A stretch of 64,000 bases of DNA. It comes from Alphaproteobacteria bacterium (lineage in GTDB: Bacteria > Pseudomonadota > Alphaproteobacteria > UBA828). Below are positions 6,950-28,511 of this stretch, one piece after another (the first letter of the stretch is position 1; every line of letters begins with the position of its first letter). The stretch covers positions 1 through 64,000 of the forward strand of contig CBDCQT010000013.1 of NCBI GenBank assembly GCA_965220745.1. The letters run 5' to 3'. Both the position numbers and the translations under genes were made by a program. The notes under the pieces were generated by a model. That model saw only the letters and a list, made by a program, of their open reading frames with translations. It was not told the origin of the DNA and made no database searches.

Positions 6950-6950
6950 G

Positions 6951-10871
<3,921 letters not shown>

Positions 10872-11300: not shown

Positions 11301-11445
11301 GCCGCCCGAGGCGTAGTATCCGGCACGCGCGAGGCGCGATTTTGCAAAACGAAGCCAATTTCGCGTAACGTATTGTTTTACAACACATAACTGCGAGTTT
11401 ACCGATTCTGGTGCGCGGGCCGTCGGGTCCCGAGGAGATTGGGCC

Positions 11446-12375
11446 ATGCCCAGGACCGTCTCAATCGCGGCGTGCCAGTTCGTTGTCAGGCCGGTCGGCA
11501 GCTTCGACGAATTCGCCGCTCACGCACGGGGGCTGCTGGACCAGGCAGACGGTGCCGACCTCGTCCTGTTCCCGGAGCTCTTCACTATCGAGCTGTTCAC
11601 GACCTTTCCGGACTGGATGGATCTGCCGGTCTCCGAACTCACCCGCATTCATGAGTACGGGAACACGAATTACACCGAGGACTATCGCCGGCTCTTCGAA
11701 AGCGAGGCCAGGGAGCGGGGGCAGCACATCGTCGCCGGCTCTCACCTGGAAAGGAAGGACGGCAGATATCTCAACGTCGCCTATCTCTACGGCCCCGACG
11801 GACTCGTTCACGTCCACGACAAGACGCATATCTTTCCGGCCGAAGCGCAGTGGTCGACCGAGGAGGGGGACACGATCGAGATGGTCGAACTCCCCTTCGC
11901 CAAGGTGGGTTTCAACGTGTGTTACGAAGCCGAGATTCCGGAATGCGCTGCGAGCCTCGCCGAGCAGGGCGCCGAGATCATCCTGTGCCCGTCGCTCACC
12001 TTCACGGAGCACGGCTTCTGGCGTGTCCGCCACTCAGCCCAGGCGCGCGCGATCGAGAACCAGGTGTACGTCGTCCATTGTGGCGGCAGTGCCGTGCTCC
12101 CGCCGGGTGGGCCGCTGCCGTCCCCTTGGGGGCGTAGCTCGATCCTGAGCCCCTGCGATACGCCGTGGGAGGCCCCGAACGGCGTCGTCGCGGAATCACC
12201 GGAGCCCAACGTCGAGACCGTGGTGCGCGGCGTGGTCGACCTCGACAGGATCCACGCAAATCGCGAGAACGGCGCCGCACCGACCTTCCGGGACCGCCGC
12301 CGGCGCTCGGACCTCTACCGGGAGTGGCCCAGCCACACCAAGCACGCGGCGGACAAAGCGCGGCTCAACGGCTAG
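11446..12375 (+). CDS. Carbon-nitrogen hydrolase (nitrilase superfamily)
   Basis: Glu-Lys-Cys triad contexts FPELF, HDKTH, VCYE; ARAIENQ. Confidence 0.9.
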   Translation: MPRTVSIAACQFVVRPVGSFDEFAAHARGLLDQADGADLVLFPELFTIELFTTFPDWMDLPVSELTRIHEYGNTNYTEDYRRLFESEARERGQHIVAGSHLERKDGRYLNVAYLYGPDGLVHVHDKTHIFPAEAQWSTEEGDTIEMVELPFAKVGFNVCYEAEIPECAASLAEQGAEIILCPSLTFTEHGFWRVRHSAQARAIENQVYVVHCGGSAVLPPGGPLPSPWGRSSILSPCDTPWEAPNGVVAESPEPNVETVVRGVVDLDRIHANRENGAAPTFRDRRRRSDLYREWPSHTKHAADKARLNG

Positions 12376-12383
12376 CCCACATC

Positions 12384-12397
12384 TCTCACCAGGGTCA
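12384..12397 (+). repeat. Left copy of 14-bp direct repeat TCTCACCAGGGTCA (candidate att core)
   Basis: Identical to 28415-28428; begins 9 bp after the nitrilase stop. Confidence 0.6.
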
Positions 12398-12573
12398 TGG
12401 TCTGCGCGGCGCTGTCCGGCCCACAGAGCAGGAAAGCCGCGAAGCGCGATGTGGTGCATCGGGCGAGACCGTATGTCCTTCTGGTCCGGCTGGTGCGGGG
12501 CGGTTCGCCCTACACTGGCTGATCTCAACGAGGGTTGCTCAGTGAGCAGGGCCTCAAGCCAGGAGGGCGAACC

Positions 12574-13686
12574 ATGGTCGACTATAGCGAGGTTTTCATC
12601 GGATTGGACGTGTCGAAGGACAGCCACGCCGTCGCGGTGGCGGAAGGCGGACGCGATGGTGAGGTCAGGTATTTCGGCGAGATCGCCTCGGATGCGGCTG
12701 CCGTCCGTCGTTTCGTGCGCAAGCTCGAGCGGCCAGGCGCACGGCTGCACTTCTGCTACGAGGCCGGCCCGACGGGCTACGGGCTGAAGCGTCTGATCGA
12801 GGGGCTCGGACACGACTGCGCCGTCATCGCACCGTCCCTGATCCCGCGCCGGCCCGGTGAGCGGGTGAAGACGAACCGCCGCGACGCCGTGAAGCTGGTA
12901 CGCCTGTTCCGGGCCGGCGAGCTGACCGAGATCTGGACACCGGACGAGGCCCATGAAGCGATGCGCGATCTCGTGCGCGCCCGCGAGGCGGCGGTGAGAG
13001 ACCGCACCCGCAAGCGCCAGGAGATCCGCTCCTTCCTGCTGCGTCATGGCAGGGTCTACGCTGGCAAGAAGGCGTGGGGCCCCAGGCACATGGCCTGGCT
13101 CCACGAGCTCAGCTTCGACTGGCCCGCCCAGAAAGTCGTGCTGCACGAGATGATCGCGGCCGAGAGACAGGAGCGCGAGCGCGTCGCGCGGCTGGAAGGA
13201 GCGATCGAAGACGCCCTGCTCGACTGGCCGCTGGCTCAAGCGGTGGACCGCCTTCAGGCGCTGCGCGGGGTCGGCCTGATTACGGCGGTCACTTTCATGG
13301 TGGAGGTCGGCGACATCCGTCGCTTCGAGCATCCTCGGCGGCTGATGGCTTATCTCGGCCTCGTGCCCTGTGAGCGCTCGACGGGCGAGAGCGTTCGGCG
13401 CGGCGGCATCACCAGGGCCGGCAACGCACGGGTGCGCCACGTGTTGGCGGAGAGCGCCTGGGCCTACCGCCATCCTGCGGCGGTGGGAAGGAAGAAATAC
13501 TTCGCGACGAGACATCTGCCGCAGGACGTCCAGGAGGTGGCATGGAAAGCACAGGCGCGCCTGACCAGGCGCTACCGCGCGCTGTGCGCACGAGGAAAGC
13601 GCAGCACGGTCGCGGTCACCGCCGTGGCCCGTGAGCTGGTCGGCTTCATGTGGGCGATCGCGCGCATGGAGCCTGCGGCGAACTGA
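12574..13686 (+). CDS. IS110 family transposase (DEDD recombinase)
   Basis: IGLDVSK, CYEAGPTG, KTNRRDA, AYLGLVP..STG, GITRAGN, AVARELV. Confidence 0.95.
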   Translation: MVDYSEVFIGLDVSKDSHAVAVAEGGRDGEVRYFGEIASDAAAVRRFVRKLERPGARLHFCYEAGPTGYGLKRLIEGLGHDCAVIAPSLIPRRPGERVKTNRRDAVKLVRLFRAGELTEIWTPDEAHEAMRDLVRAREAAVRDRTRKRQEIRSFLLRHGRVYAGKKAWGPRHMAWLHELSFDWPAQKVVLHEMIAAERQERERVARLEGAIEDALLDWPLAQAVDRLQALRGVGLITAVTFMVEVGDIRRFEHPRRLMAYLGLVPCERSTGESVRRGGITRAGNARVRHVLAESAWAYRHPAAVGRKKYFATRHLPQDVQEVAWKAQARLTRRYRALCARGKRSTVAVTAVARELVGFMWAIARMEPAAN

Positions 13687-13699
13687 TCCGAGGGAGAGC

Positions 13700-13900
13700 G
13701 ATCGCCCATAGCGCGCATAGCGGCGGGGACGCGGCAACGACGGGGGAACTCCCGACGACGCTTTGTGGCCGGCATCGCCGACGCCCGATGCGAGACAGGA
13801 CCAGCCCCGGACGCAGACACGGACATGCGGTCTCGACCCGCGCATCAGAGCTTGTTCACCAACGTCCTGGGCCGCGTTCCCACCGCTATGCGCGCGACTT
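13700..13900 (+). ncRNA. Putative IS110/IS1111 guide RNA (seek/bridge RNA) region
   Basis: GCGCGCATAGCGGCGGGGACGCGGC (~13710) can pair with GCCGCGTTCCCACCGCTATGCGCGC (~13871-13895); lies downstream of the transposase. Confidence 0.55.
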
Positions 13901-14687
13901 GCGAAACTCAGGCGCCGCTTGGCGCCTGATAGGTCCGTTCGAACTCTTGCTTGACGAAGGACATCAGAGCGGTTTGACGTACTCCGTGGGCCGGAGAGCG
14001 TCGCCCTTCGGGTCGCGCCCAGGCGCCCGCCCGCGGCGTCGCGGGCCTCAACCGTATTCCCCGATACGCTGTCCTCAGGAAGTGCCATGCGGACGCCTGA
14101 GCCCGCGTGCAGTATCCACATCAGCCTGGTGTGGGAGCACTCGAACATTCAGCAGGGCTCTGAGGGGCTGACCCTCGGCTTCAGTTGCGAACTCGCAGAC
14201 CCATTCCATGTCTTCGGCGGTTTGCAGGGAACTGACATTGATCTTGGCCAGACCGCCGAAGGAGACCGCAAAGGCAATCTCATCGGCGGAGGGTTTCGGT
14301 ATATCCAACAGACCTTGCCAAGGGGTCTGGACGAGTATGGACGAGTATGGAGATCATCAGCACGCAGAAGAACGACGCGGCAGTGCGATACATTGGCATA
14401 ACTTATGAGCGCTATGAGTGTATTTTCTTGGACGCTATATGACTAAATCGCATAGATTTTTTCTCTGTCTGGATTCGTACCGGTTGGTCGGTACCGCGGC
14501 TTGCCGAACATGGAGGGACAGACATGGAGAATTCGCGGTATGTGGGAGCGCGAACGGGCGCGGACTCCTTCGCCGCAGGGGCCATTTTGACGCCGGCCGG
14601 CGGGCGCGCGACGGTGTCTGTAAGACCTTGCGAACATCCCGCGGAATGGGATCGGCCCCGCGTTCCGCTTGACGGAATCCGGCATCC

Positions 14688-15848
14688 ATGACTTCGGAAT
14701 CGAGCATGCCGGCGGGCTCTTCGATGCCACCCGTTTTTGTTACCGGTTCGGCCGGGCATGTCGGCGCCAACCTCGTGCGCCGGCTGCTCGACGAGAGCGT
14801 GCGGGTCCGAGTGTTGTTGAGACACGAGGACAACAACGAGGGCCTGGAAGGTCTCGAGGTCGAACGCGCGTTCGGCGACATTCGGGATCTGGATGACATC
14901 AGGCGGGCGATCACGGGATGTCAGGGCGTCTATCACTGCGCGGCCTACGTCTCGACCATCGAAGGCAACCGCGCCCATCGCCGCGACGTGTTCGAGTGCA
15001 ACGTTCTCGGTACCCGCAACGTGCTGCAGGCGGCGCGGGAGGCGGAGGCCGGCCGGGTGGTGGTGACGGGCTCTTTCAGCGCGGTCGGATACGACCTGGA
15101 CGATCCCTCCGCTCCCAGCAACGAGACCATGCAGTTCTACCCCATGGAGCGCACGATGCCCTACGAGCGCAGCAAGTCGCTCGTCGAGCAGGAGTGCTGG
15201 CGCGCGGCGGCATCAGGGCAGGACGTGGTGGTCGCGACGTGCTGTGCGGTGGTGGGGGGCGCCGACTTCTTCCCCTCGCGACTGGGAAGAACCTTATGCG
15301 ACTACACCAACGGCAAGCTCCGTGCCTACGTCGATGGCGGTTTCGAGTTCGTCGCGGCGCGCGACATCGTCGAAGGGCACTTGTTGTGCATGCACCACGG
15401 TCGCTCGGGCGAAAAGTACATCTTCAGCACCGAGTACAAGACCATCTCGGATATCCTGGATCTCTACGAGGAGGTCTCCGGCGTCCCGCGGCCGCGCCGG
15501 CGAATTCCGACCCGCCTCATGCTCGTCTTTGCCGAAATCGCGAGCTTCTATCTGAGCCGGGTTCACCCGGGCTTTCCCCAGCGCTTCACCCCCGGCGCCA
15601 TACGCCTGTTGCGAAAGTGCCGCCACGCCGACATCTCCAAGGCGAAACGGGAGCTCGGCTATCGGCCGACCGGCCTCCGTGCCGCGGTTCATGAGGCCTA
15701 TGCGTTCCACTACGGCCGCAACAAGATCGCGAACCCGCACGCGAAGCGCCCGTGCGAGGACGCCGCGAGTCGGCATGTTGCGCGTGAGGAGGGCGATCCC
15801 GCGCCGGGCCAGGGCATGCGGATGATGGCAGGCGGGAGCTCGACGTGA
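14688..15848 (+). CDS. Extended SDR / 3-beta-HSD-like NAD(P)-dependent enzyme, putative SdmB-type sterol C-4 decarboxylase/reductase
   Basis: TGSAGHVG, YERSK; overlaps the Rieske gene in the sterol operon. Specific function inferred from context. Confidence 0.75.
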   Translation: MTSESSMPAGSSMPPVFVTGSAGHVGANLVRRLLDESVRVRVLLRHEDNNEGLEGLEVERAFGDIRDLDDIRRAITGCQGVYHCAAYVSTIEGNRAHRRDVFECNVLGTRNVLQAAREAEAGRVVVTGSFSAVGYDLDDPSAPSNETMQFYPMERTMPYERSKSLVEQECWRAAASGQDVVVATCCAVVGGADFFPSRLGRTLCDYTNGKLRAYVDGGFEFVAARDIVEGHLLCMHHGRSGEKYIFSTEYKTISDILDLYEEVSGVPRPRRRIPTRLMLVFAEIASFYLSRVHPGFPQRFTPGAIRLLRKCRHADISKAKRELGYRPTGLRAAVHEAYAFHYGRNKIANPHAKRPCEDAASRHVAREEGDPAPGQGMRMMAGGSST

Positions 15849-16942
15849 GGGCGGCGCCCGACGCACCGCCCGGCTTCGAGGACGCCGGCAACCTGCGCCA
15901 GCAGGCGCGTGCTGCGGGCATGGACCCGAATTACTGGTATCCAGTCGAGGAAGTGCACCGGATGAAGCCGGAGACGGTGGTCGAGGTCGTCTTCTGGAAG
16001 CGTTCCATCGCGCTCTTCCGGGGAAAGGATGGCACCTTCCAGGCGGTCGAGGATCGCTGCGCGCATCGCCAGCTCAAGCTCTCCCTGGGCGACGTGCAGG
16101 GATGCCGGCTCGTCTGCGCCTACCATGGCTGGGAGTATGGCGGGAAGGGGCGTCCCGCCGGAGTGCCCCATGACCGCGAGGGGCGAAGCTTTCCGAATCT
16201 TGCGCTCAAGACCTATCCGGTGAAGGTCCGCTACGGTCTGATCTGGCTCTTCCCGGGAGATCCGGCGCTGGCGGAGGAGCGCCGGATTCCGGACATTCCT
16301 GAGCTCGAGGGTTCCGGCCGCTGGGCCTGCGTGCCGCTCTGTTTCACCTGGTCGGCACACCACTCGATGGTGATCGACAATGTGAGCGACTTTACCCACG
16401 CACACCTGCACCGCCGCTACCGGCCCTTCGACGGGGCTACCCTGACCCGCTGCGAGACTCTCGGCGACAACGTGCATCTCGCCTACGACACGCACGTCGG
16501 GCGCGGGCGCATCTCGGGCCTTTTCGTCGATCATCGGCGGCTCAACACCAACCGCATGGAGCTTTGCTACGAGTACCCCTACCAGTGGTCGAACACCGAC
16601 GACGCGATCAAGCACTGGCTCTTCGTGCTGCCGGTCGACGAGCGCACCAGCCGGGTGTTCTTTCTGTTCTATTTCAAGTCGCTGAAAGTACCGCTGCTGC
16701 CGGTGCGCATTCCCCGTTTCGCCATGACCGCGGTCATGAAGGTCTCCAATCGCCTGCTCATCGCTCCCCTGCTCGCCCAGGACCGGTTCGCGCTGGAGGC
16801 GGAGCAGGAGGGTTACGAAAGACACTGGGACGCCCGTCCCGTCGAGTTCAATCCGGTGGTCAGGGCCTTTCAGAAGGTGACCGTTCGCAAGTGGCAGGAG
16901 CATCTGGCGCGCGGGTCGGAGAGCGACGATGCCGCCGCCTGA
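15845..16942 (+). CDS. Rieske non-heme iron oxygenase, putative SdmA-type sterol C-4 methyl oxidase
   Basis: CAHR...CAYHGW Rieske motif; DNVSDFTHAHLH iron site; sterol operon context. Confidence 0.75.
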   Translation: MRAAPDAPPGFEDAGNLRQQARAAGMDPNYWYPVEEVHRMKPETVVEVVFWKRSIALFRGKDGTFQAVEDRCAHRQLKLSLGDVQGCRLVCAYHGWEYGGKGRPAGVPHDREGRSFPNLALKTYPVKVRYGLIWLFPGDPALAEERRIPDIPELEGSGRWACVPLCFTWSAHHSMVIDNVSDFTHAHLHRRYRPFDGATLTRCETLGDNVHLAYDTHVGRGRISGLFVDHRRLNTNRMELCYEYPYQWSNTDDAIKHWLFVLPVDERTSRVFFLFYFKSLKVPLLPVRIPRFAMTAVMKVSNRLLIAPLLAQDRFALEAEQEGYERHWDARPVEFNPVVRAFQKVTVRKWQEHLARGSESDDAAA

Positions 16943-18029
16943 AGCGCTCAACCTCTCATCGGCGCTGTCGGGCAAGACCCTGCTCGAGGCGGCGGCGATG
17001 GTGCTGGGGTTCATCGCCGTCCTTTTCCTGGCTTCGCTGCTGCTGCCGGGTCGCCGGATCACGGGCCCGGATGCCGACGGAAACGAGCGCGTCTACAAGC
17101 TCAACGGCCTCTCTCTGTATCTGATCGTCATGATTGCGGCGTGTGGCGCGCAAGCCTCCGGCGTGCTCTCCCTCTCGGTGCTGCATACCCACCTTCTCGC
17201 CCTCTTCGTCGTGGCGAACGGATTCGCGTTCGCCCTCTCCGGCTGGCTCTACCTGCGCGGGGTACGGAAGCCTCATGCATCGCCCGGATCATGGCGGGGT
17301 TTCTTCTTCGGTGTGGACGCCGCTCCGGCCTGGTTCGGGCTTGATCTGAAGCTCTTCAGCTACTGCCCCTCCCTCATCGGCCTGGCCCTCTTCAACGCAT
17401 CGTTTGCCGCCGTGCAGTATGAGACTTACGGCGAGTTGACCCTGGCAATGATGCTCTATCAGACCTTCACCTTCCTCTACGTGCTCAACTACTTCCAGTT
17501 CGAACAGGGGATGATCCATACCTGGGACATCGTCCGCGAGCGCTTCGGATGGATGCTGGTCTGGGGCGATTACGTGCTGGTGCCCTTCTTCTACTGTCTT
17601 CCCGGCTGGTGGCTGGTTCACGCACCGGAGCCCTTGTCTCCGGCCGCCGCCGCCGGGATCGTCGTGCTCTTCGTTTTCGGCTTCTGGCTCTTCCGCGGGT
17701 CCAACCAGCAGAAGCACCGCTTCAAGCGCGATTCCAACGTCAGGATCTGGGGCAAGCCCGCCCGGACCCTGGAAGGCCGCCTCCTGGTCTCCGGGTTCTG
17801 GGGCATCGGCCGGCACCTCAACTACACCGGCGAGATCTGCGTCTACCTCGCCTTCGCCCTGACCACCGGGCTTACGTCCTGGGCTCCCTTCCTGTTGCCG
17901 GCGTGGCTCGCGGGCTTGCTGTGGCACCGTTCGAGACGCGACGAGCGTCGCTGTCGCGCCAAGTACGGCGAGCTGTGGGAGCGCTACACGCAGCGGGCGC
18001 GCTTCGCGATGCTGCCCTTCATCCATTGA
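16929..18029 (+). CDS. ERG4/ERG24 family sterol reductase, probably delta-14 reductase
   Basis: TWDIVRERFGWMLVWGD, FRGSNQQKHRF, LLVSGFWGIGRHLNYTGE, DERRCRAKYG; multiple hydrophobic segments. Confidence 0.88.
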   Translation: MPPPEALNLSSALSGKTLLEAAAMVLGFIAVLFLASLLLPGRRITGPDADGNERVYKLNGLSLYLIVMIAACGAQASGVLSLSVLHTHLLALFVVANGFAFALSGWLYLRGVRKPHASPGSWRGFFFGVDAAPAWFGLDLKLFSYCPSLIGLALFNASFAAVQYETYGELTLAMMLYQTFTFLYVLNYFQFEQGMIHTWDIVRERFGWMLVWGDYVLVPFFYCLPGWWLVHAPEPLSPAAAAGIVVLFVFGFWLFRGSNQQKHRFKRDSNVRIWGKPARTLEGRLLVSGFWGIGRHLNYTGEICVYLAFALTTGLTSWAPFLLPAWLAGLLWHRSRRDERRCRAKYGELWERYTQRARFAMLPFIH

Positions 18030-18037
18030 GAGCGGAG

Positions 18038-19447
18038 ATGGCCAACCGAACCGACAGCATGGCGACCCTGCCTACGGCGAATCTGCCGCCGCGGGCGGAC
18101 GAGCCCCTTCCCGAGCTTGCGGGCAGCTGGCCGCTGCTCGGCCACTTGCCGGAGTTCCAGAGAGATCCGGTCGCCATGTTGAGCCGCGGCTGGCGCGAGC
18201 ACGGCGAGCTCTTCCGCTTCCGGCTCGGGACCCGCGCTTTCGTTCTCTTCACCGGGCCCCAGGCCCACGACTTCTATTTCAGGACGCCCGAGGAGCAGCT
18301 GAACGCGAAGGCCGTCTACCGCTTCACCGTGCCCATCTTCGGACGCGGCGTGGCCTACGACACCTCCCCGGACATCATGGCGGAGCAGCTGGGCTTTCTC
18401 TTTCCAGCGCTCCGCGAGGCGGCAATGCGCAGGTTCGCCCTCATCATGTTCGAGGAAGCGCGGCGGTTCGCCGACGCCCTCGGGAAGGATGGGGAAATCG
18501 ATCTGCCGCACGCGATGAACGAGCTCACGGTCAAGATCGCCAGCCGCTGCCTGATTGGACAGGAGGTCCGCGATCGGGTGGACACCGGATTCGCCGAGAC
18601 CTACCACGACCTGCAGAAGGGCATTAACACCCTGGGTTTCTTTCTTCCCAGGCTTCCCGTTGCGTCGCATCGAAAGCGCGACAGGGCCCGGCGACGGGTG
18701 GCGGAGCTCTTCGGCGGGATCATGGCGGCGCGCCGGGATGCCGGGGCCAGCCCCGACGACTTCATGCAGACGCTCATGAACGCCCGGTACAAGAACGGCC
18801 GCGCCCTGAGCGACGACGAGATCACGGGGATCCTGCTGACGGTGCTGTTCGCGGGCCAGCACACCAGCGCGGTGCTCGCGACCTGGACCGGCCTGGAGCT
18901 GCTCCGGGCGCCGGCGTACCTGGCGCGGGTGAGAGATGAGGTGCAGGACGTCTACCGCGAAGCGGGGAGCATGAGCATCGACAGTCTCCAGCACCAGCCG
19001 GCTCTGGAGAATGCCGTCCGCGAGTGCGAGCGGCTGCACCCGCCGCTGATACTGCTGATCCGAAAGGTGCTCGAACCCCTGCGCTACGGAGGCCGTGTCG
19101 TGCCCGCCGGCACCATGGCCATGGTGTCGCCGGCGGTCTCTCACCGCCTGCCCCACATCTTCGCCGACCCGGAGCGCTTCTTCCCCGACCGATTCGCGCC
19201 TCCCGCCAGCGAGGACAGGCAACACCGCTACGCCCTGATCGGCTTCGGCGGCGGCAAGCACGCGTGCATGGGTAAGAACTTCGCCTACATGCAGCTCAAG
19301 GCGATCTGGACCGTTCTGCTCGATCGTTTCGACTTCACTCCCAGCGGCGCGTTTCCGCGTCCGAACTACGGCAGCTGGGTGACGGGACCCGAGAGACCGT
19401 GCCGGGTCCGCTACCGTCGCCGCGCGCAGCCGAGCGTCTTCCGATGA
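18038..19447 (+). CDS. cyp51: Sterol 14-alpha demethylase, cytochrome P450 CYP51
   Basis: YRFTVPIFGRGVAYD and AGQHTS CYP51 signatures, ExxR, FGGGKHACMG heme motif; ATG 18038 after GGAG. Confidence 0.92.
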   Translation: MANRTDSMATLPTANLPPRADEPLPELAGSWPLLGHLPEFQRDPVAMLSRGWREHGELFRFRLGTRAFVLFTGPQAHDFYFRTPEEQLNAKAVYRFTVPIFGRGVAYDTSPDIMAEQLGFLFPALREAAMRRFALIMFEEARRFADALGKDGEIDLPHAMNELTVKIASRCLIGQEVRDRVDTGFAETYHDLQKGINTLGFFLPRLPVASHRKRDRARRRVAELFGGIMAARRDAGASPDDFMQTLMNARYKNGRALSDDEITGILLTVLFAGQHTSAVLATWTGLELLRAPAYLARVRDEVQDVYREAGSMSIDSLQHQPALENAVRECERLHPPLILLIRKVLEPLRYGGRVVPAGTMAMVSPAVSHRLPHIFADPERFFPDRFAPPASEDRQHRYALIGFGGGKHACMGKNFAYMQLKAIWTVLLDRFDFTPSGAFPRPNYGSWVTGPERPCRVRYRRRAQPSVFR

Positions 19448-22400
19448 GCGGCGCCGCGTCGCGGCGTTACGACGTGGCCATTGTCGGCGCGGGGCCGGTC
19501 GGGAGCCTGTGCGCGCTCGCTCACGCGCGGAAGGGCGCCCGGGTGGTTCTGCTGGAAGCGAATCCCAAGGGGTCAGAGCGCCTGGCGGGCGAATGGCTGC
19601 ATCCACCTGGGGTACAGATACTGCAGGACTTCGGGATCGGGCTCGACACCCTGCCCCGCAGCGCTACGGGCAGGGGTTTCGTGGTGTTCCCGGAAGACGG
19701 CTCGGAGCCGATCGTCCTTCCCTACACGAATGGCTCGCAGGGTCTGGCTTGCGAACACGCCTTGCTCGTCTCGACACTGCGGGAAGCCGTCGAGAAGGAG
19801 GCGGATGTGGATTTCTTCACCCATGCGCGGGTGAATGCGGTCGAAGACGAGCGGCTGTCCTACAGCAACAACGGCACGGTTCACACCCTCGACGCCGCGC
19901 GGATTGTCGGCGCCGACGGCCGGGCGTCGATCGTGCGCCAATCCCTGGGCCTGTCGACAGACCCGATGCTCTGCTCGCGGATGCTGGGGATCACGGTGAG
20001 CGACGTGAGCCTGCCCTTCGAGGGTCACGGGCATGTGCTGCTCGGCGGGCCGGGGCCGATTCTCGCATACGGTTTGGCAAAGGGTTGCGTCCGGATCATC
20101 GTCGACGTTCCGCTGGACCGCTGGACACGCCAGGACCGGATCGGCTTCCTGACCGAATCCTATGCCGTTCTGCTGCCGGAAGCTCTCAGGCCGGGGTTCG
20201 TCGAAGCGGTGCGGGCGGGGCAATTCCACGTTGCGGCCAATCAGCTGCGGCCGCGAGTCACATACGGTACCCCGCGTCGTGTGCTGATCGGCGACGCGGC
20301 CGGGCACTACCATCCCATGACGGCGGTCGGCATGACCCTCGGTTTCGGTGACGCGCTTGCCCTCGCCGAGAGCGGCAGCTTTCGCGAGTTCGCCGCCGGG
20401 CGTTTCCGGGCCACCCAAGTGCCGGAGCTGCTCGCCATGGGGCTCTACGAGGTCTTTGCCGATCATCGGGCCGAGGCGGTGGCGATGAGACACGCGGTCT
20501 ACCGAGGATTGCGGACAAACTCCTATTACCGGGACCGGACCACGCGGATACTCGCCTGCGAAGACCGATCCGCGCTCGAGATGGGTCTCGCGTTTTTCGC
20601 AACGGCGGCCCGTGCGGCGGCCGTGGAGATTCCGCTCTCCTTGCGCCGGTTCGCTCCGCGTCGGGGCCTGAAGATCTTCGGGGCGCTCACTGTTCGTCTC
20701 TTGTGGCTCCTGCGCTGGGCTCTGCAGTTGCGCCAGTCGAGACGCCAGGGCGGGCGGAATGACGAGCGAGCCCTGGACAGCCTGGCCCGCGCACTTTTGC
20801 ACTCCATGCCGCCGCGGCCCCACGCTTCCGGGTCCGGCCGGCCGAAGGACTCCGAGGCGCCCGATGCCGGTCCGGCTCTGGGGAGCGCGACCGCGCACCT
20901 CCTGAGCCTCCAGGGCGAGGATGGCGGCTGGGAGGGCGAGATGGTCTGGTGCCCCATGCTCACCGCGCAATATGTGCTGCTGCACCACATCATCGGGCGG
21001 CCGCTCGAGTCCGGCCGGCGCCGGCGCGTGTTGCGCTCGTTCGAACGGACCCGTCTCGACGGGGGCGCATGGGGCCTGCACGAGCACTCTTCGCCCCACC
21101 TCTTCGTCACCGCCCTGGTCTACGTCGCGGCCAGGCTGCTCGGGGTCGAGCGCGACGATCCGCTGGTCGAGCCGGCCCGGCGCTTCATCCAGGCTGAGGG
21201 GATTCTCGGTATTCCGAGCTGGGGAAAGTTCTGGCTGGCGCTGCTGAACCTCTACGACTGGCGTGGAGTCAACGCCGTTCTGCCGGAACTGTGGAGCCTG
21301 CCGCGCCGCTTACCCCTGCACCCCTCGAATTGGTACTGCCATACCCGGCTCATCTACATGGCGATGGCGGCGATCTACCCGCATCGCTTCCAGGCGCCCG
21401 TCACGCCCGCGATCGCGTCGCTGCGGGAGGAGCTGTACCCCCATGGCTTTGCCGAGGTCGATTTCTCCGCCGCCCGCAATTCCCTGCGGGAGGCCGACCT
21501 CTACGCGCGGCCGAGCGTGTGGCTCAAGGTTGGATACAAGATTGCGCGCGTGTTCAATCGGCTCCACGGCAAACGCCTGCGCGCCCGATGCACGGAGGCG
21601 ATCGTCCGACAGATCAGATGGGAGCTGCAGACCACCAGCCATACGAGCATCTCTCCGGTGAGCGGCCTTCTCAACATGCTTGCCCTGTGGCTGCGCGATC
21701 CGGACGACGCCGATCTGCGCCAGGCGCTTGCGAAGCTGGACGACTGGATCTGGGAAGACGAGGAAGAGGGTGCGCGTGTCGTCGGCGCGAGAAGCGCCTC
21801 GTGGGACAGCGGCTTCGCGTTGCAGGCGCTGGCGGCGGTGCCCGCGTTCGACGGGGCAGGGGACGCGCTGCAGCGCGGCGCCGACTTCCTGCTCGGAGAA
21901 CAGATTGCCGCCAGCTTCGAAGGGTTTCGCGAGGCCTATCGAACCGACCCCAGGGGCGGCTGGTGCTTTGCCGGAGGATGGCACGGCTGGCCGGTGAGCG
22001 ACTGCACTGCGGAAGCGGTGCTCGGACTTCACGCTGCCGGTCGCGGTGCTGCGCACGCAAGCGCGTTGCGCGATGCTGTCGGGTTCATGCTGCGCTGCCA
22101 GAACCGCGATGGCGGCTTCGGCAGCTACGAGGCGCGACGCTCGGCTTTCGGTCTGGAGTGGATGAATCCGGCCGAGATGTTCGGCGATTCGATGACCGAG
22201 CAATCCTATGTCGAGTGCACCGCGTCCTGCCTCGCGGCGCTCGCCGCCTGCATGGAGGACGTTCCGCAAATCGCGAACGGAGCGGTGACGGGCGCCATGT
22301 CCAGGGCCGGTGCCTGGCTTCGCCGGACCCAGGCAAGCGACGGGTCGTGGCGCGGCGTATGGGGAGTTCAATTCATTTACGGCACCCTCTTCGGGGTCAG

Positions 22401-22851
22401 GGGTCTTCTTGCCGCCGGGGCCGGCCCCGGCGATCCGGCGCTTCGCTCGGCCTGCCGCTGGCTGCTGGAGCGCCAGCGAGAAGACGGCGGATGGGGCGAG
22501 CACCACAGCGGATGCCTGACCGGCCAGTATGTCCCGCACGACGAAAGCCAGGTCATCCAGACGGCGTGGGCGTTGATCGCGCTCCTCGAGGCGGCCGAAT
22601 CGAACTGGACCGCGATTTCGCGCGGCGCCCGCTACCTGCTCGACACGCAGGACGCGGACGGGACATGGCCCAAGCAGGACATGGCGGGCGTCTTCTTCCG
22701 CACGGCGCTCCTGGATTACGTGCTGTATCGACAGTATTTCCCGCTGCACGCGCTCGCCCTCTACGAGCAACGCCGCCGCCAGCGGCTGGGTCTCGCCGCC
22801 CACGCTCCGTGTGCCGCCGACACGTCGCCGCCCGAAGCGGCTGCCGCCTGA
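19444..22851 (+). CDS. Squalene epoxidase-oxidosqualene cyclase fusion protein (1135 aa)
   Basis: N-half: GAGPVG, RLAGEWLHPPG, ADG, GDAAGHYHPMTAVGMT. C-half: QW repeats, PSWGKFWL, WYCHTR, GWPVSDCTAE, YVECT, WGVQFIYG. One uninterrupted ORF. Confidence 0.92.
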   Translation: MSGAASRRYDVAIVGAGPVGSLCALAHARKGARVVLLEANPKGSERLAGEWLHPPGVQILQDFGIGLDTLPRSATGRGFVVFPEDGSEPIVLPYTNGSQGLACEHALLVSTLREAVEKEADVDFFTHARVNAVEDERLSYSNNGTVHTLDAARIVGADGRASIVRQSLGLSTDPMLCSRMLGITVSDVSLPFEGHGHVLLGGPGPILAYGLAKGCVRIIVDVPLDRWTRQDRIGFLTESYAVLLPEALRPGFVEAVRAGQFHVAANQLRPRVTYGTPRRVLIGDAAGHYHPMTAVGMTLGFGDALALAESGSFREFAAGRFRATQVPELLAMGLYEVFADHRAEAVAMRHAVYRGLRTNSYYRDRTTRILACEDRSALEMGLAFFATAARAAAVEIPLSLRRFAPRRGLKIFGALTVRLLWLLRWALQLRQSRRQGGRNDERALDSLARALLHSMPPRPHASGSGRPKDSEAPDAGPALGSATAHLLSLQGEDGGWEGEMVWCPMLTAQYVLLHHIIGRPLESGRRRRVLRSFERTRLDGGAWGLHEHSSPHLFVTALVYVAARLLGVERDDPLVEPARRFIQAEGILGIPSWGKFWLALLNLYDWRGVNAVLPELWSLPRRLPLHPSNWYCHTRLIYMAMAAIYPHRFQAPVTPAIASLREELYPHGFAEVDFSAARNSLREADLYARPSVWLKVGYKIARVFNRLHGKRLRARCTEAIVRQIRWELQTTSHTSISPVSGLLNMLALWLRDPDDADLRQALAKLDDWIWEDEEEGARVVGARSASWDSGFALQALAAVPAFDGAGDALQRGADFLLGEQIAASFEGFREAYRTDPRGGWCFAGGWHGWPVSDCTAEAVLGLHAAGRGAAHASALRDAVGFMLRCQNRDGGFGSYEARRSAFGLEWMNPAEMFGDSMTEQSYVECTASCLAALAACMEDVPQIANGAVTGAMSRAGAWLRRTQASDGSWRGVWGVQFIYGTLFGVRGLLAAGAGPGDPALRSACRWLLERQREDGGWGEHHSGCLTGQYVPHDESQVIQTAWALIALLEAAESNWTAISRGARYLLDTQDADGTWPKQDMAGVFFRTALLDYVLYRQYFPLHALALYEQRRRQRLGLAAHAPCAADTSPPEAAAA

Positions 22852-22910
22852 TCCCCGCCCTGAGTATGGGTGGCCTCGCGCAGTGCCGCGCGGACGAAGG
22901 CCCGCTTCGT

Positions 22911-23948
22911 TCAGTCGCGCGGGCGCCCGGGTTTGCGGGCCAGGAAAAAGAACATCGGCGTGAAGACGCCGGACTTGCCGCCGTCCACCAGCGCGTCCGC
23001 TCCCGCATTCAGGAGCGTGCTGACTGCGCGGGCGCCCTCGGGAAAGAGCCGCAGCCGTTCCCCCACCCGCAAAGTGAAATTAGTCAGAACGCGGCCGACC
23101 GGCGTGCGCGGAATACTCGAAAGACTGAGGTCGCGGCCTTGCAAGGAACGGTACCACGGCATCTCCGGGTCCGCTTCGGGTGCGCGGTCGCGCGCTTCCA
23201 GGAGCTCGAACCCGGCCGTCTGCAATGCGGCGGAAACTTCCGACGTGGTCGCGATATCCGGCAGCCCATTCCCGGCCATGATATCGTTTTTTATTCGCCG
23301 GTGCTCCGTCTTGCCGGTATCAAATATGTCGGTAACGCACCACTCGTAGCCCGCGAAACAGGCCCCCGGACGCAGCACGCGCAAGACCTCGCGGAACGCC
23401 GCTGTCTTGTCGGGTGCGTGGGGCATGGACTCGATCGCCATGGCGGCATCGTAGCGGTCGTCGTCGTCGGGAATCTCCATGTAGTCACTGTGAATAAAGC
23501 GACATAACGACTGGACATCCCGAGTGTGCAGTCTTGCGCGCTCGATCTGGTAGGCGTTGTTGTTGACGCCGACAAAGCTCGCCCCGAAATGACGGGCCAG
23601 ATTGCCCATCGGTCCGCCGACCCCGCATCCCAGATCGATTACTTGCATACCCGGCTTCAGGGACAGCTTTTCAGCGAGGAAATGCTGGTGTCTGAGCAGC
23701 GATGCCTTGAAGCTCTCGCCCCGGCTGCGGGGTGCGAAGTGAAAGGATTGGCCCCAACCGAACTCGTAGAAGTCGGTCGCCAGGTCGTAGTAGCGACTCA
23801 CGAACGAGCGATAATGCTCTTTCCTGTGTTCCAGGCCGGCGTCAAAGATTTCGGTGTATCCATCGACCGTGGACTTTACTTCGTCCGGAGCGAGGCCCGC
23901 GAGGAAGCGCGCTTTCGATCGGGTGGCGGAGGTGCGATTCATGGGCAC
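22911..23948 (-). CDS. smt: Sterol C-24 methyltransferase (ERG6/SMT family)
   Basis: YYDLATDFYEFGWGQSFHFA, DLGCGVGGP, IESMPHAP, YEW, GNGLP. Start may be ATG 23942. Confidence 0.92.
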   Translation of the reverse strand: MPMNRTSATRSKARFLAGLAPDEVKSTVDGYTEIFDAGLEHRKEHYRSFVSRYYDLATDFYEFGWGQSFHFAPRSRGESFKASLLRHQHFLAEKLSLKPGMQVIDLGCGVGGPMGNLARHFGASFVGVNNNAYQIERARLHTRDVQSLCRFIHSDYMEIPDDDDRYDAAMAIESMPHAPDKTAAFREVLRVLRPGACFAGYEWCVTDIFDTGKTEHRRIKNDIMAGNGLPDIATTSEVSAALQTAGFELLEARDRAPEADPEMPWYRSLQGRDLSLSSIPRTPVGRVLTNFTLRVGERLRLFPEGARAVSTLLNAGADALVDGGKSGVFTPMFFFLARKPGRPRD

Positions 23949-24130
23949 ATTCTGCCAGAGTCATACGCCGTCCCCAAGACCGGAAAGTCATGGGAAACTC
24001 CGATGCCTCGCTTCATGACGCCGATATCCACGGAGTCCCAGGCGCAGCGCCCTTGTTCGGGGCGCCGGACTTTCCACAGGGTACAATGGGGCGAGAGGCA
24101 ACGCCGCAGCGCCAGAGAGGATGGGACCAC

Positions 24131-24865
24131 ATGGCTGAAAAGCAAGCCGCGCAAACCCGTTCGGATCGCGACACCCACCGGACTCGGTTGGCGATTGCGC
24201 CGGTCGTATTCACGGGGCTGGTCATCGCAATTCTGACAGCGTCCGGCATCGGTGCGCGCTACGGCGTCCGCGGGGATTTCGACGTTATCCATGGGCTTCT
24301 GATCCTCTTCTTTTCCGTAAATCTGGTGATCTGTCATTGGGAGATATGCCTGTTCTTCAAACGCGACTACATCGAGAAACGCGCTCAATACTGGCGCGAA
24401 CGCTCGCGAGAGACGGGCCGGACGTCGGCGGTCGAATTCCTCACCGGAAGGGTTCCCTTGACGCGAATATTGTCGTCGATGGTGTGGGCGGACGTCTGGG
24501 CCACGTATTCCCAGTTCGACAGTTCCTACGCGGACCGGCGCACATACGGTTACAACGTAGATATCGCCAACGGCTTCGTAACGCCGGTACCGACGCTGAT
24601 CCTCTTTGCCGCCTTCACCGTCGATTTCTTGCCCGCCCTCGTCGCCGGCATTATGGGAGCGATGATATTCTGGCAGTTGACCTACGCGACGTCGGTCTAC
24701 TGGGTCAGCTTCTTCGTGGCCAATCGACAAAGCCGCCTCGGCCGAAAGGATATGTACATCTATATCTGGGCGCTGAATTGCCCGTGGGTGCTGTTCGCCC
24801 TGCTGGGACTCTACGTCTCGATTCGCCTGATCGTGAACGGCGACTACAGCGTTCTCGGCTATTGA
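24131..24865 (+). CDS. Membrane protein, putative EBP/EXPERA-type sterol delta8-delta7 isomerase
   Basis: About five TM segments; CHWEI, VWATYSQFDSSY (WxxYxxxDxxY) and WALNCPW resemble EBP motifs; adjacent to sterol genes. Confidence 0.6.
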   Translation: MAEKQAAQTRSDRDTHRTRLAIAPVVFTGLVIAILTASGIGARYGVRGDFDVIHGLLILFFSVNLVICHWEICLFFKRDYIEKRAQYWRERSRETGRTSAVEFLTGRVPLTRILSSMVWADVWATYSQFDSSYADRRTYGYNVDIANGFVTPVPTLILFAAFTVDFLPALVAGIMGAMIFWQLTYATSVYWVSFFVANRQSRLGRKDMYIYIWALNCPWVLFALLGLYVSIRLIVNGDYSVLGY

Positions 24866-25007
24866 TCAGGGGTTCGCCCGCGAAGACACCGATCAAGGCG
24901 ACTGATCTCGCCATGACTCCAAGTGTTGTCTCACAGCGAATGTCCCAGCAGACGACGACCGTGAAGAGTATAGTCTAAGAGTCTGGCCTATAATAAGGTG
25001 TTGATTT

Positions 25008-25420
25008 TCAGTATCTTACTAGTCTTCTGGTGAGGAGTTGAACGCTGGCGATGAAGAGCCACGCTTGGGCGGTGGCGACGGTGGCCTCGAAGTCCTTGGC
25101 GAGCCGTCGATTGCGCTTCAACCAAGACAGTGTGCGCTCGACCACCCAGCGGCGCGCCAGGATATCGAACCCTCGCGTATCGGCCGGGCGTTGGACAATC
25201 TCCAGGGTCCACCGACCGATCCGCTCCAGAGCCGCCGCGAGCTTGGGGCCGGCATAGGCACCATCGGCGAAGACGTGACGCAGCCAGGGGAAGGCGTGGC
25301 GGATGGACGCGAGCACCGAGGGGGCGCCGTCGCGATCCTGGATGTTGGCAGCGTGGACCTGAGCGGCAACCAACAGGCCGCCGGTGTCGGTGAGGATGTG
25401 GCGTTTGCGCCCCTTGATTG
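25008..25420 (-). pseudogene. IS5 family transposase, C-terminal fragment
   Basis: IKGRKRHILTDTGG, DGAYAG, RRWVVERTLSWL..RRLAKDFE; N-terminal part absent. Confidence 0.85.
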
Positions 25421-26175
25421 TCGGACGGCGGGGCGGACGGCATCGCCATCCCGCGCTCGGCGCTATGCGCCGTTGCGCCATGCGCCAGCATCATCCTTCC
25501 CGTATCGTGTCGCGATACGTCAAGCGTTGCTGCGCTCCGCCATGGCCCGCGCCCAACTCCGTCCCATGGTGGATGCTTTCCCCTGCCATCCAGCCCGTAC
25601 CCCGTCGCACGCCCATTGTTCGCGCCACGCCCCCGGACCGTTGCTTGAGCCGGCGCTCTCTCCCCCGGTCTGCACATCGATGGCGCTCATGGTGGTTCGC
25701 ACCGGATTCGCCAAGGCGGCCGCCATCGCCTTGTCGCTCATCCCTGCTGAATCGGAGCGCTTCGCCACTCTCTCCCCGCGCCCCGATTATCTCGACACTC
25801 TCAATCAGCTACGAATAAGCGCCATGCCGCCCCACCTTGCCAACCAGGAAGGTGCACCGCTCAGGTGAAGCGCCCGGACCGATACTATCTGTTGTTGTTC
25901 CCGCCGAGCAACTCACTACATGATGTGTCTCGTGGTGAGTGAAGCACGCGAGAGAGAAGGTAACCCATCACACCTGTGCAAGCTGACGCTTGCGGGAGCG
26001 AACCGGAGCCGCCTGACTGGCCATGGAGGCCGAACGATATAACGCCTGTACAAGGACTTGGCGTGCCCCTTCACGCAGTCGCAGCTGGCCATGAAAGGCT
26101 GCCGGCGTCGGGTACTGCTAGTCAGGCCCCGGCGGTCATGAACGCGTTCGCCCAACGGTTCGGGAACCTGCCGCC

Positions 26176-26315
26176 ATGGTAGCGACCATCGGTCAGATGG
26201 CGTCTGCCGAATACTACCTGGAGAGCCAACGCTCGTTCCGGCACCCCAACGAGTATTACACGGCCGGAGAGGAGCCGGACGGCACCAGGTTCAACACCAA
26301 GAGTCTGCTCGGCCT
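26176..26315 (+). pseudogene. MobF (TrwC-type) relaxase N-terminal stub
   Basis: MVATIGQMASAEYYLESQRSFRHPNEYYTAGEEPDG carries the double-YY pattern; similarity ends before the HUH motif, next to an IS1380 remnant. Confidence 0.7.
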
Positions 26316-26429
26316 GAATGCGAGCGCACAAGGGCTCCCGTTCGGCGCCTTTGTGGTGCCGATGTCTGAGGTTTTCCGTGTCGGGGTTAGGGGTTGAAGG
26401 GTCTCGGGTTGGCGGAGCACGTCGCCCCG

Positions 26430-27585
26430 GCGGTCGCGGTCCAGTGGTGGCGAGGCGGCCGGCGAGCACGCGGAACAGGGCAGCGTCGGGACAGGCCGAG
26501 GCGAAGTGGATGCGGATGCGCGCGGCTCGCTCGATCACCTGGGCGCCAATCTTGAGCAGGCTCCGACGGATGGTGGCGAACTCGGACCAGGCGAGTGGCA
26601 CCGCGTCGCGGAGCGCGAGCATCAGCCAGTAGGCGGCGGTGTGGATGATCAGCCGGAACTGGTTGGCGAGAGGGCTCTGGCGGGAGGTCCGGTCGGAGGC
26701 GAGCTGGGCCTTGTGCTGCTTGATCAGGTTTTCCGCCTGTCCGCGCGCGCAGTAGGTCCCTTCCTAGAGGCGGCAGGGCTCGCCCTCGAGCGAGGCGACG
26801 ATGTAGCGCGCGGCGTCGCCTCCAGTCGGGCGACGATCTTGCGCTCGCGGCGCCATGAGCCGGCGGCGTAATCGAAGCTGGCAAAGCCGCGCATCCTCTC
26901 CGGCCCGGCCTCGGCGCGGCGCACCTTGAGATCGTCGCCGACCTCGTAGGCCAGCGCGTGCAACGCGGCGTTGCCGGCCAGGCCGAAGATGTAGTCGACG
27001 CCGTTCGCCTTGCACCACGCCATCGCCTCGGTCCGGCCGTAGTGGCTGTCTCCCCGGAAGACGATCCGGGTGTGCGGCCAGTGGCGGCGGATGCGGCGGA
27101 CCAAATGCTTCAGCAGGGTGCGGACCTCGGGCCCCGACGGCGCCTTGCCCGGACGCAGGAGAACCGCCACCGGCTTGCCGCTCTCCACATGATAGACGTG
27201 GACGGGAAGGAAGCAGCGCGTGTCGTAGTAGGCGTGGAAGAGCGAGAGCTGCTGGTGCCCGTGCACGGCATCGCAGGTGTCGTCGATGTCGAGCGTGATC
27301 GCCGCCGGCGGGGAAGCGAAGGAACGGCAGAAGATGTCGACCAGCGCGGCCGCCAGACGCCCTACCTCGATGCGCGACGGCGCGTTCTCCAGCCGGCACA
27401 TGGTCGGCTGCGAGCACAGATCGCGCCCGCTCTCCGGCGCCCGGCCCACCGCCAGCTTGAACAGCGGATCGCCGCGCAGCGCGTCGCAGTCGTCGGCGTC
27501 CTCGTATCCGCAGGCGATCGCGAACATGCGGAAGCGCAGCATCGCCGGCAGCGTGTGGACCACCCGGTCGGGGTCGCGCCACCCC
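26430..27585 (-). pseudogene. IS1380 family transposase, truncated and frameshifted
   Basis: AIACGYEDADD, SQPTMCRLEN, LDIDDT, RGDSHY, RGQAENLIK; frameshift near 26815, stop near 26764, 5' end missing. Confidence 0.9.
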
Positions 27586-28224
27586 CGGATGGAACCGGCC
27601 GCCGCCCGCCAGCCAGAGATCGACGGGATTGACCAGCCCTTCGTAGTCAACGCAGGGCCGGCGATAGACCGAGCGCAGCAGGGAGATGCACTGATTCGCG
27701 GTCGCCCAGCCGTGTTTCTCGGTGATGCGGTTGAAACGGTCCTCCACGTCTCTGCGCGTGATGCTGTCGAGGGAACGGCCGAGCCAATCCGCGAGAGGCC
27801 GCTCGAACCGATCGCGATAGTTCTCGTTGGTGCTCGCGTTCCGCTTGGGATTGGCCGCCATGTACTGCTCGAAGGCCTGTTTGAGCAGCGGCATGCGCCG
27901 GCTCCTGGCACGGGTCGCCGCCGGGTCTTCGCCCACGGCGACCATGCCCAGCAGCCTGTGGGCCTCGCGCCGTGCGTGCTCGGCCGCCATCCTGTCGCAG
28001 CGTCCGATGACGAGGCGCTTGTTGGGCGCCGCCCTGCCGCCCGCGCCGGGGCGGTAGTTGACGATGTAGGACTTGACGCCCGAGGGATGGACCTGGACGC
28101 CGAAGCCTGTGAGCTTGTCGTCCCATGCGATCCATGGCTTGTGGGCGGGCTTGAGGCTGTCGATGGCGCGCTTTGCGATTGTGAGCTTGACGCGCGCGAC
28201 GCGCTTTCCGGGTGTGACTGGCAT
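27586..28224 (-). pseudogene. Tyrosine integrase, N-terminal arm-binding and core-binding part only
   Basis: KLT..AIDSL, WDDKLTGFGVQVHPSGVKSY, IGR (DUF4102-like); runs directly into IS1380 sequence, so the catalytic domain is lost. Confidence 0.85.
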
Positions 28225-28412
28225 GAGGGAATGATGGCATGGCGAAACATACAAATCAACACTACCCACAACACATGAAAGTAACTTCAGGACCGCTCGG
28301 GGGCCTCCAGGCCGCTTGAGGCCGGATAGATCATTTCAACACCACAACAAAATCAACCTCCAGGGCTCTCCAGGCATCTCAGGATACCAGGAGGAACAAC
28401 AGATCACTATGG

Positions 28413-28444
28413 TTTCTCACCAGGGTCACGACCATGGTGAGAAA
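28413..28444. repeat. Right att candidate: 14-bp direct repeat inside a 32-bp imperfect palindrome
   Basis: TTTCTCACCA-G-GGTC-AC-GACC-A-TGGTGAGAAA; 28415-28428 matches 12384-12397; ~190 bp upstream of the integrase. Confidence 0.6.
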
Positions 28445-28511
28445 TGCGGGCTGGCATTGACGGGAGTACAGTGATCGGTTGTGGGATCGGGGGATCGGGG
28501 CGGGGGATGTT

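Follow-up and report, generated by a model that had tools for sequence, protein, structure and literature searches.

Can two consecutive enzymes of sterol synthesis, the epoxidase that acts on squalene and the cyclase that acts on its epoxide, work as one bacterial polypeptide, and what would their joining bring? Methylococcus, Gemmata and the myxobacteria keep squalene monooxygenase and oxidosqualene cyclase (OSC) as separate adjacent genes. The question is raised by a 64,000-nucleotide stretch of DNA from an Alphaproteobacteria bacterium (assembly GCA_965220745.1, contig CBDCQT010000013.1, positions 1 to 64,000 of the forward strand), hereafter the window, in which one gene at 19444-22851 on the + strand joins a squalene epoxidase (SE) to an OSC. 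With a probability that we put at roughly 85%, this gene encodes an MsbE-type bifunctional enzyme of the bacterial sterol cluster of the sponge-symbiont type, its activities being those predicted from sequence. The fusion is genuine and conserved but not new: fusions of this kind were published in 2020 from sponge symbionts, where they are common, and the present one is a typical member of that family.

One open reading frame for two enzymes

The open frame comprises 1135 codons and a stop codon, without an internal stop. The features referred to below are the following.

19444..22851, + strand: fused squalene epoxidase/oxidosqualene cyclase gene, probably MsbE-type (open frame; Pfam SE and SQHop_cyclase_N/C)
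19465..20799, + strand: squalene epoxidase half, residues 8-452 (Pfam; alignment to human SQLE 6c6n; Foldseek match 6c6r; motifs)
20809..20862, + strand: linker rich in Pro, Ser, Ala and Arg, 18 residues (456-473), PPRPHASGSGRPKDSEAP, between the SE and OSC halves
20863..22785, + strand: oxidosqualene cyclase half, residues 474-1114 (Pfam; TIGR01787; alignment to human 1w6k; Foldseek)
21994..22014, + strand: VSDCTAE with the predicted catalytic Asp853 (human D455) and Val851 (human V453), from the alignment to 1w6k

Two starts share the stop that ends at 22851, GTG 19399 giving 1150 residues and ATG 19444 giving 1135. The latter is the likely start codon of the gene, because it overlaps the stop of the upstream CYP51 gene (ATGA) and because the homologues P0010, P0132 and P0135 begin at residue 16 of the query. 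Residue numbers refer to the 1135-residue protein, which is the P0001 numbering of the Pfam matches minus 15. In P0001 numbering, FAD_binding_3 covers 24-323 (86.4 bits), SE (PF08491) 170-406 (85.3 bits; cut-off 20.1), SQHop_cyclase_N 496-788 (174.9 bits) and SQHop_cyclase_C 799-1123 (180 bits). The order in the one polypeptide is thus PF01494 and PF08491, then PF13249 and PF13243; in the 1135-residue protein the epoxidase domains lie in the first ~390 residues and the two cyclase domains together span 481-1108. The NCBIfam profile TIGR01787 (squalene/oxidosqualene cyclases) is matched at 505.2 bits, above its cut-off of 322.7.

The first-pass annotation of this DNA had described a fused 1135-residue frame with a DCTAE motif, a Pro-rich linker at about 20800-20870 and no obvious start codon just before the cyclase. 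All of this holds. The uninterrupted frame contains both Pfam domain sets, and WPVSDCTAE is found in the cyclase half; the linker is placed at 20809-20862 and has no in-frame Met or Val codon. Directly before it stands M455 of 'HSM', which is not conserved as an internal start, since Ile or Leu replaces it in many homologues. It had also held that the fusion would be undone by a stop or frameshift in the linker, or by close homologues that were always split. Logan contigs from three DNA runs of three studies were compared with the gene, and neither a stop nor an indel was seen at the linker in these independent contigs; a contig of 669 nucleotides (nt), X2, which stems from an independent study, spans 20296-20964 and shows 0 gaps. 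The homologues, for their part, are overwhelmingly fused. In a set of 104 loci (the window and L015-L117, with some duplicates), a single open frame holds both halves in 98, one locus is fused with a TAG and five are split.

Searches at greater breadth gave the same picture. All 120 best matches of a whole-length search are fused proteins of 996-1168 residues with both domain sets and 70-98% identity. A scan of one genome per prokaryote species yielded 370 stretches encoding relatives, of which the best 80 each span about residues 1-1130 at 64-98% identity; the open frame reaches at least 1100 residues in 79 of these best 80 loci, all from other species. The same-genus relative L017 (G015:C71), 90% identical, carries a single in-frame TAG at about codon 650, at the Gln of HRFQAPV. 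It was considered as a natural split form and rejected, as the TAG sits in the cyclase N-domain, away from the linker; it is either a nonsense change, making a pseudogene, or a sequencing error.

Elsewhere in the gene a single indel was reported, the insertion of six in-frame nt (CCGCCC) at window position 22827 in contigs of two other studies. Its site is the poorly conserved C-terminal tail of the fusion, which is of low predicted local distance difference test score (pLDDT) in the model described below.

Two complete halves

Both halves align over their full length with human enzymes, the epoxidase half with SQLE (6c6n, E 5e-27) and the cyclase half with lanosterol synthase (1w6k, E 5e-129). 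In the alignment to SQLE, the flavin-coordinating residues are retained: GxGxxG, E38, RxxGExLxP and the DG and GD motifs. The cyclase half retains, in human numbering, D455 and C456 of VSDCTAE, C533, H232, Y503, W387, F444, W581, Y587, F696 and Y704; in the window protein VSDCTAE occupies residues 851-857, and C925 aligns with human C533. Hopene cyclases have a motif other than DCTAE.

These residues were followed through a family alignment (A2) of 117 rows that includes divergent fusions as well as stand-alone SEs and OSCs, the counts being taken over filled rows. On the epoxidase side GxGxxG is conserved in 82/82 and the aspartate of the GD motif in 85/85. For the cyclase the counts are 74/78 for D853, 71/77 for C854, 64/73 for H633 and 63/75 for Y895. 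Position 851 (human V453) is valine in 65 of 77 rows. The rule that links valine or isoleucine here to the OSC product is stated in PMC10152446, and the same key valine was used for MsbE (PMC7074536); from V851, the rule predicts lanosterol as the product of the cyclase.

Purifying selection acts on both halves. The ratio of nonsynonymous to synonymous substitution rates (dN/dS; Nei-Gojobori, summed over 29 disjoint sister pairs) is 0.225 for the SE half and 0.151 for the OSC half. For comparison, an omega of 0.17 was given for 'LSS/ERG7' in metagenome-assembled genomes (MAGs) of Ircinia sponges (Kelly 2022, PMC9531527). With SE and OSC both complete in one chain, the protein is very probably a bifunctional enzyme leading from squalene to a protosterol, as judged from its motifs.

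The linker and its split relatives

If the two halves are each complete, then what of the segment between them? We delimited the linker by the conserved 'SM' on one side and 'DAG' on the other, and did so for 91 distinct fused proteins. It is 18 residues long in 80 of these (range 14-20), and its DNA is 54 nt in 78 of 89 scorable cases. The composition is dominated by proline (20%) and serine (16%), followed by alanine (10%), arginine (9.5%) and glutamate (8%). Its dN/dS of 0.56 is the highest among the 61 windows of 18 codons. With this common length and this top dN/dS, it follows that the length of the linker is constrained and its sequence much less so.

Five relatives are split exactly at the position of the window's linker, with the same gene order and with coupled junctions: L095-L097 (Acidobacteriota MAGs), L111 and L113. 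The junctions are as follows.

L095/L096: TAG, 5 nt, then GTG
L097: ATG overlapping the end of the SE gene
L111 (gammaproteobacterial sponge MAG): GTGA overlap
L113: GGAGG, 5 nt, then ATG

The cyclases of these pairs are 66-77% identical to the corresponding half of the window protein and the SEs 52-61%. Junction lengths are 107, 52 (L097) and 55 nt (L113), as against 54 nt in the fusion. The L097 and L113 junctions are thus 1-2 nt off the linker length, which fits interconversion by a small frameshifting indel. Stand-alone SEs of 460-480 residues, up to 68% identical, terminate where the linker begins. In L111 (7150-7680) an insertion at the end of the SE gene, shortly ahead of the junction, encodes tandem peptide repeats; a unit of 15 residues, in which E, G, K, P, L and S abound, occurs there about three times.

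Spread of the fused form

Cyclase trees were built with FastTree (132 rows) and with IQ-TREE in quick mode (61 rows, LG+G4, no mixture model); four tree rows were labelled 'stand-alone' from length alone. Fused and split forms share one clade with a support of 99-100, in which the split forms do not group together, and in both trees well-supported branches force at least 2-3 changes between the fused and split states. The base of the clade is poorly resolved in both trees, with long branches among the divergent representatives, and the direction of change, fusion or fission, is left undecided. The nearest relatives of the window gene come from MAGs labelled Alphaproteobacteria or Rhodospirillales, and many homologues from gammaproteobacterial sponge symbionts lie in the range of 67-73% identity.

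Outside this clade, eight representatives at the 50%-identity level (38-51% identical) are likewise fusions of SE and cyclase, with linkers that differ in length and sequence. One of them (P0246) was traced to a MAG labelled Spirochaetaceae. In L175, a MAG with this label, the fused SE-OSC (5001-8447) is only 45% identical to the window protein and has a shorter, unrelated linker. As L175 lies outside the sponge-symbiont clade, the SE-OSC architecture either predates that clade or arose independently.

A different long fusion, of 1082-1200 residues, was also encountered (P0308, P0310, P0312, P0325, P0340, P0354, P0368 and P0370; 8/8 scanned share the architecture). It has an N-terminal squalene epoxidase, 39-45% identical to the SE half of the window protein, a middle part of ~400 residues that is unassigned but for a weak 75-residue piece of SQHop_cyclase_C in two proteins, and a C-terminal squalene/phytoene synthase (PF00494).

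A compact structural model

A first AlphaFold2 model, built on a shallow alignment (A1; 60 rows with identities of 70% or more), had a pLDDT of 64.5 and a predicted template modelling score (pTM) of 0.41 and was not used for conclusions. AlphaFold2 on the 117-row alignment, with no templates, gave a pLDDT of 93.6 (92.2-93.6 over five models) and a whole-chain pTM of 0.92. The pLDDT falls below 50 only at residues 1-5, at 461-464 in the linker and at 1120-1135. Within the modelled epoxidase half, the secondary structure shows a FAD-binding Rossmann fold and a substrate domain, and towards its C-terminus the half has three long helices, at 377-400, 405-434 and 440-450.

Each half has the fold of its human counterpart. 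Foldseek matched the cyclase half with human OSC at target-normalised template modelling (TM) scores of 0.85-0.86 (1w6k 0.86, with a root-mean-square deviation of 3.0 over 670 columns), which includes the double alpha-alpha barrel, and the epoxidase half with human SQLE at 0.82-0.83 (6c6r 0.83). No PDB entry covering both halves was found by Foldseek, the best query-normalised TM score being 0.55. A pTM of 0.92 implies that the model places the two domains confidently with respect to each other, which hints at a fixed interface but does not demonstrate it.

Weighing the alternatives

Several observations weigh against the bifunctional reading. The NCBIfam profile for 2,3-oxidosqualene cyclase, TIGR03463, is matched end to end (2-634 of 634) at 750.1 bits, below its curated cut-off of 851. 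RNA evidence consists of a single 154-nt contig over the SE half from one metatranscriptome, too little to show transcription (three further RNA runs contained 0.04-0.08 of the sampled words), and an enzymatic assay of any fused SE-OSC was looked for in print and none was found. The positions that determine the product are mixed, and the identity of the product is not certain because H847 (human C449) and A782 (human T381) differ from the human enzyme. In the epoxidase half, F79 and H53 stand where the human enzyme has Y195 and Q168, and among the scanned genes of the cluster none for a reductase or ferredoxin that could partner the epoxidase was seen. The last two points could be taken to mean that one half is catalytically dead, for example a degenerate epoxidase that serves the cyclase as a membrane anchor or substrate-binding module. 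We regard this as improbable. The same phenylalanine is found in 84/85 and the same histidine in 84/84 bacterial relatives in A2, and because stand-alone SEs are among those that share both, the two residues are a family trait rather than decay. Moreover, the FAD-binding motifs are all intact, the SE half evolves at a dN/dS of 0.225, and with a dead epoxidase the cyclase would have no clear source of substrate, the genome's other SE-family match reaching only 25 bits. More remote still is the suspicion that the long frame is artificial and that a frameshift of assembly or sequencing has run two neighbouring genes together. It is true that a single indel error could mimic a fusion, as the junctions of the split relatives differ by 1-2 nt. 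However, the same in-frame junction recurs at 98/104 loci from many assemblies and technologies, seven other genomes of the same genus carry the fused gene, and the linker is without an indel in the contigs of the three studies, one of which crosses it with 0 gaps; we give this explanation hardly any credence. The bifunctional squalene-to-sterol enzyme that the first-pass annotation had proposed thus stays the best reading of a sequence with a complete SE, a complete OSC and their motifs kept, and the inactive half that would have spoken against it is not apparent, as neither half shows decay in its motifs or in its dN/dS.

What the bifunctional enzyme gains from being fused is a separate matter, on which two views can be held. 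The fusion may be a loose tether without hand-over, in which case nothing more is gained than that both enzymes are co-expressed, at 1:1 stoichiometry, and co-localised at the membrane, and being fused or split would make almost no difference; we see about an even chance that this is so. Such a tether agrees with the split, translationally coupled versions within the same clade (99-100 support), whose cyclases are 66-77% identical, with two split junctions that lie only 1-2 nt from the 54-nt linker, with the at least 2-3 changes of state that the trees need, and with a linker dN/dS that is the most relaxed in the gene. From a free tether, however, one would not expect a strictly conserved linker length and a compact model of high pTM, and the fused state is kept at 98/104 loci. 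These are the observations that speak for a fixed two-domain machine which passes 2,3-oxidosqualene directly to the cyclase (substrate channelling), with the linker length of 18 residues set by geometry: that length is held in 80/91 proteins in what is the fastest-evolving 18-codon window, and the compact model (pLDDT 93.6, pTM 0.92) was made without templates and with no PDB entry that spans both halves. Against it stand the pTM of 0.41 of the first model from the shallow alignment, the split relatives that evidently function as separate proteins, the linkers of other lengths in deeply divergent fusions, and the fact that a high model score is by itself no evidence of binding. We therefore hold channelling to be possible but on the doubtful side, a prediction that the compact model and the fixed linker length favour. 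In its most specific form, which we put forward tentatively from the model, the protein would be a fixed sterol synthase in which the exit of the epoxidase faces the channel of the cyclase on one membrane-binding face, such that 2,3-oxidosqualene would never equilibrate with the membrane. If true, this would be a natural substrate-channelling module, and its advantage could explain the dominance of the fused form in horizontally spreading sterol clusters, namely those of sponge symbionts labelled as at least eight phyla.

The sterol cluster and its surroundings

The fused gene lies at the end of a row of four sterol genes on the same strand, tightly packed or overlapping in an operon-like manner, and faces a fifth. 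The CYP51 ATG at 18038 lies 8 nt past the ERG24 stop, and the CYP51 stop overlaps the ATG of the fusion.

14688..15848, + strand: SdmB-like NAD(P)-dependent sterol C-4 demethylation protein, msbA counterpart (NF052578, 302 bits, below the cut-off of 600; Pfam Epimerase, 3Beta_HSD)
15845..16942, + strand: SdmA-like Rieske oxygenase, msbB counterpart, with a 4-nt overlap with SdmB (NF052579, 402 bits, below the cut-off of 600; Pfam Rieske, VanA_C)
16929..18029, + strand: ERG4/ERG24-family sterol reductase, msbC counterpart (Pfam PF01222, 224.8 bits)
18038..19447, + strand: CYP51 sterol 14-alpha-demethylase, msbD counterpart, 469 residues, unfused (Pfam p450; best PDB match 6mcw, 'Cytochrome P450 51', E 6e-104)
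22911..23948, - strand: sterol C-24 methyltransferase, msbF counterpart, convergent with the fusion (Pfam Sterol_MT_C, 73.6 bits, and methyltransferase domains)
12535-13686, + strand: IS110-family transposase, upstream flank of the cluster
26122-26622, - strand: DDE-transposase remnant, downstream flank
26764-28269, - strand: integrase-like open frame with an Arm DNA-binding domain, downstream flank

Within the window's genus, 8 of 21 genomes (G000 included) carry the fused gene; of 20 sampled genomes that belong to other genera in its family, order and class, none does. That mobile-element genes bracket the cluster, and that the cluster is present in only 8/21 same-genus genomes, suggests that it is a mobile island. 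An empty-site comparison in five cluster-lacking genomes of the genus found the upstream CN-hydrolase gene and the downstream AlkZ-like gene each in one of the five and never together, and no tRNA gene was found in 11000-31000. The idea that the committed steps are transferable as one gene was only half right, as it is the whole six-gene cluster that appears to move (Kelly 2022; patchy presence in 8/21 same-genus genomes).

Between the methyltransferase gene and the transposase remnant, two open frames on the - strand (23939-24730 and 24988-25677) are without a Pfam match even at E 1. The G+C content falls to 0.615 at 24001-26000, the lowest in that part of the window.

In the genome of 4.82 Mb, the fused gene is the sole strong SE match and the sole sterol-type (OSC-like) cyclase match; one other SE-family match is present, the weak one already mentioned. 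Three genes of the SQS/PSY family (SQS_PSY) could, by their sequence, be a source of squalene. The same genome also holds a separate cyclase resembling squalene-hopene cyclase (SHC) (G000:C12:725597-726550, L001; PF13243, 444 bits; a 786-residue open frame). With an SHC-like and a sterol-type cyclase in one genome, the hopanoid-type and the sterol-type enzyme would draw on the same squalene and be in competition for it.

A proposed route from squalene

Taken together, the fused protein would act as follows. The N-terminal FAD-dependent squalene monooxygenase (residues 8-452) would convert squalene to 2,3-oxidosqualene with O2, a putative partner delivering the electrons. An 18-residue tether would hold it to the class-II triterpene cyclase (residues 474-1114), in which Asp853 of VSDCTAE is predicted to protonate the epoxide, and the cyclase would form a protosterol, predicted to be lanosterol owing to Val851. 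The protosterol would then be processed by the adjoining CYP51, ERG24-type reductase, SdmA/SdmB and sterol methyltransferase. The fusion itself may have originated at the junction of two translationally coupled genes, and would guarantee a 1:1 stoichiometry and keep the two membrane-surface enzymes next to each other.

Two debates are touched by bacterial sterol synthesis, one on steranes as biomarkers of eukaryotes and sponges, the other on where the eukaryotic pathway came from. Sponge symbionts are enriched in such sterol clusters (Kelly 2022; Brown 2023), and it is through the fused gene that squalene enters them. For triterpenoid engineering, a compact and naturally optimised squalene-to-lanosterol enzyme would be a handy part. 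A linker of fixed length, relatives that are split by nature and a predicted structure that is compact provide ready-made controls, with which the question of channelling is cleanly testable.

Comparison with known systems

The rarity and novelty that the first-pass annotation had implied are not supported. MsbE was described in 2020 and the fusion was mentioned in 2023, and the scan of one genome per species contains 370 relatives. The closest known system is MsbE (GenBank MT026193) of the msbA-F locus, from a gammaproteobacterial symbiont of the sponge Melophlus sarasinorum (Mohanty et al., 2020, Mar Drugs 18:124, PMC7074536). According to that paper, MsbE is one gene whose N-terminal squalene epoxidase shows residues for flavin binding and whose C-terminal cyclase has the key valine, and it stands in the order NAD(P) oxidoreductase, Rieske oxygenase, sterol reductase, C30/C14-demethylase, fusion and S-adenosylmethionine-dependent sterol methyltransferase. 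The window fusion has the same features, namely an SE-then-cyclase polypeptide, the flavin residues, the key valine and an msbA-F-like cluster of six genes. The two differ in host, gammaproteobacterial for MsbE whereas the nearest MAGs here are labelled Alphaproteobacteria or Rhodospirillales; the likeness is drawn from the published description, in which MsbE is an annotation only.

The same architecture appears as 'Fused SMO/OSC homologs' (SMO, squalene monooxygenase) in Brown, Olagunju, Giner and Welander (2023, Nat Commun 14:1859, PMC10070321), in sterol clusters of sponge and environmental metagenomes with SdmA/B and sterol methyltransferase (SMT) genes. In the accessible text of that paper, however, the fusion is mentioned only as trimmed before tree building, and it is the SMTs that were characterised. 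Kelly et al. (2022, Microbiome 10:164, PMC9531527) reported ERG24-CYP51-'LSS/ERG7' clusters in 115 of 537 Ircinia sponge MAGs from 11 classes, with the same core operon, purifying selection, horizontal transfer and an SMT or FDFT1 gene on the opposite strand; several of the loci related to ours bear isolate names in the style of these MAGs. There the gene is called LSS/ERG7, and the words 'fused', 'fusion', 'SQLE' and 'ERG1' are absent from the text as accessible. Their LSS alignment of 3765 positions fits the fused length, the epoxidase half going unremarked in that text. In the accessible portions of Santana-Molina 2020, Hoshino & Gaucher 2021 and a 2025 preprint on cyclase diversity, no mention of the fusion was found.

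Other systems share parts of the design. Human SQLE (6c6n) and LSS (1w6k) have the same two folds and catalytic motifs but are two polypeptides, and the SE and OSC pairs of L095-L097, L111 and L113 have the same gene order and break at the window's linker but are two coupled genes. The CYP51-ferredoxin fusion of Methylococcus capsulatus (PMC7947880, PMC13277303) is, as described in the accessible text, also a natural fusion in a bacterial sterol pathway; it joins an enzyme to its redox partner and not two consecutive enzymes, and the CYP51 of the window, with 469 residues, is unfused. To this family the present analysis adds a linker constrained in length and relaxed in sequence, separate estimates of selection for each half, split relatives with near-identical junctions, deeper fused lineages and a compact model of the whole polypeptide.

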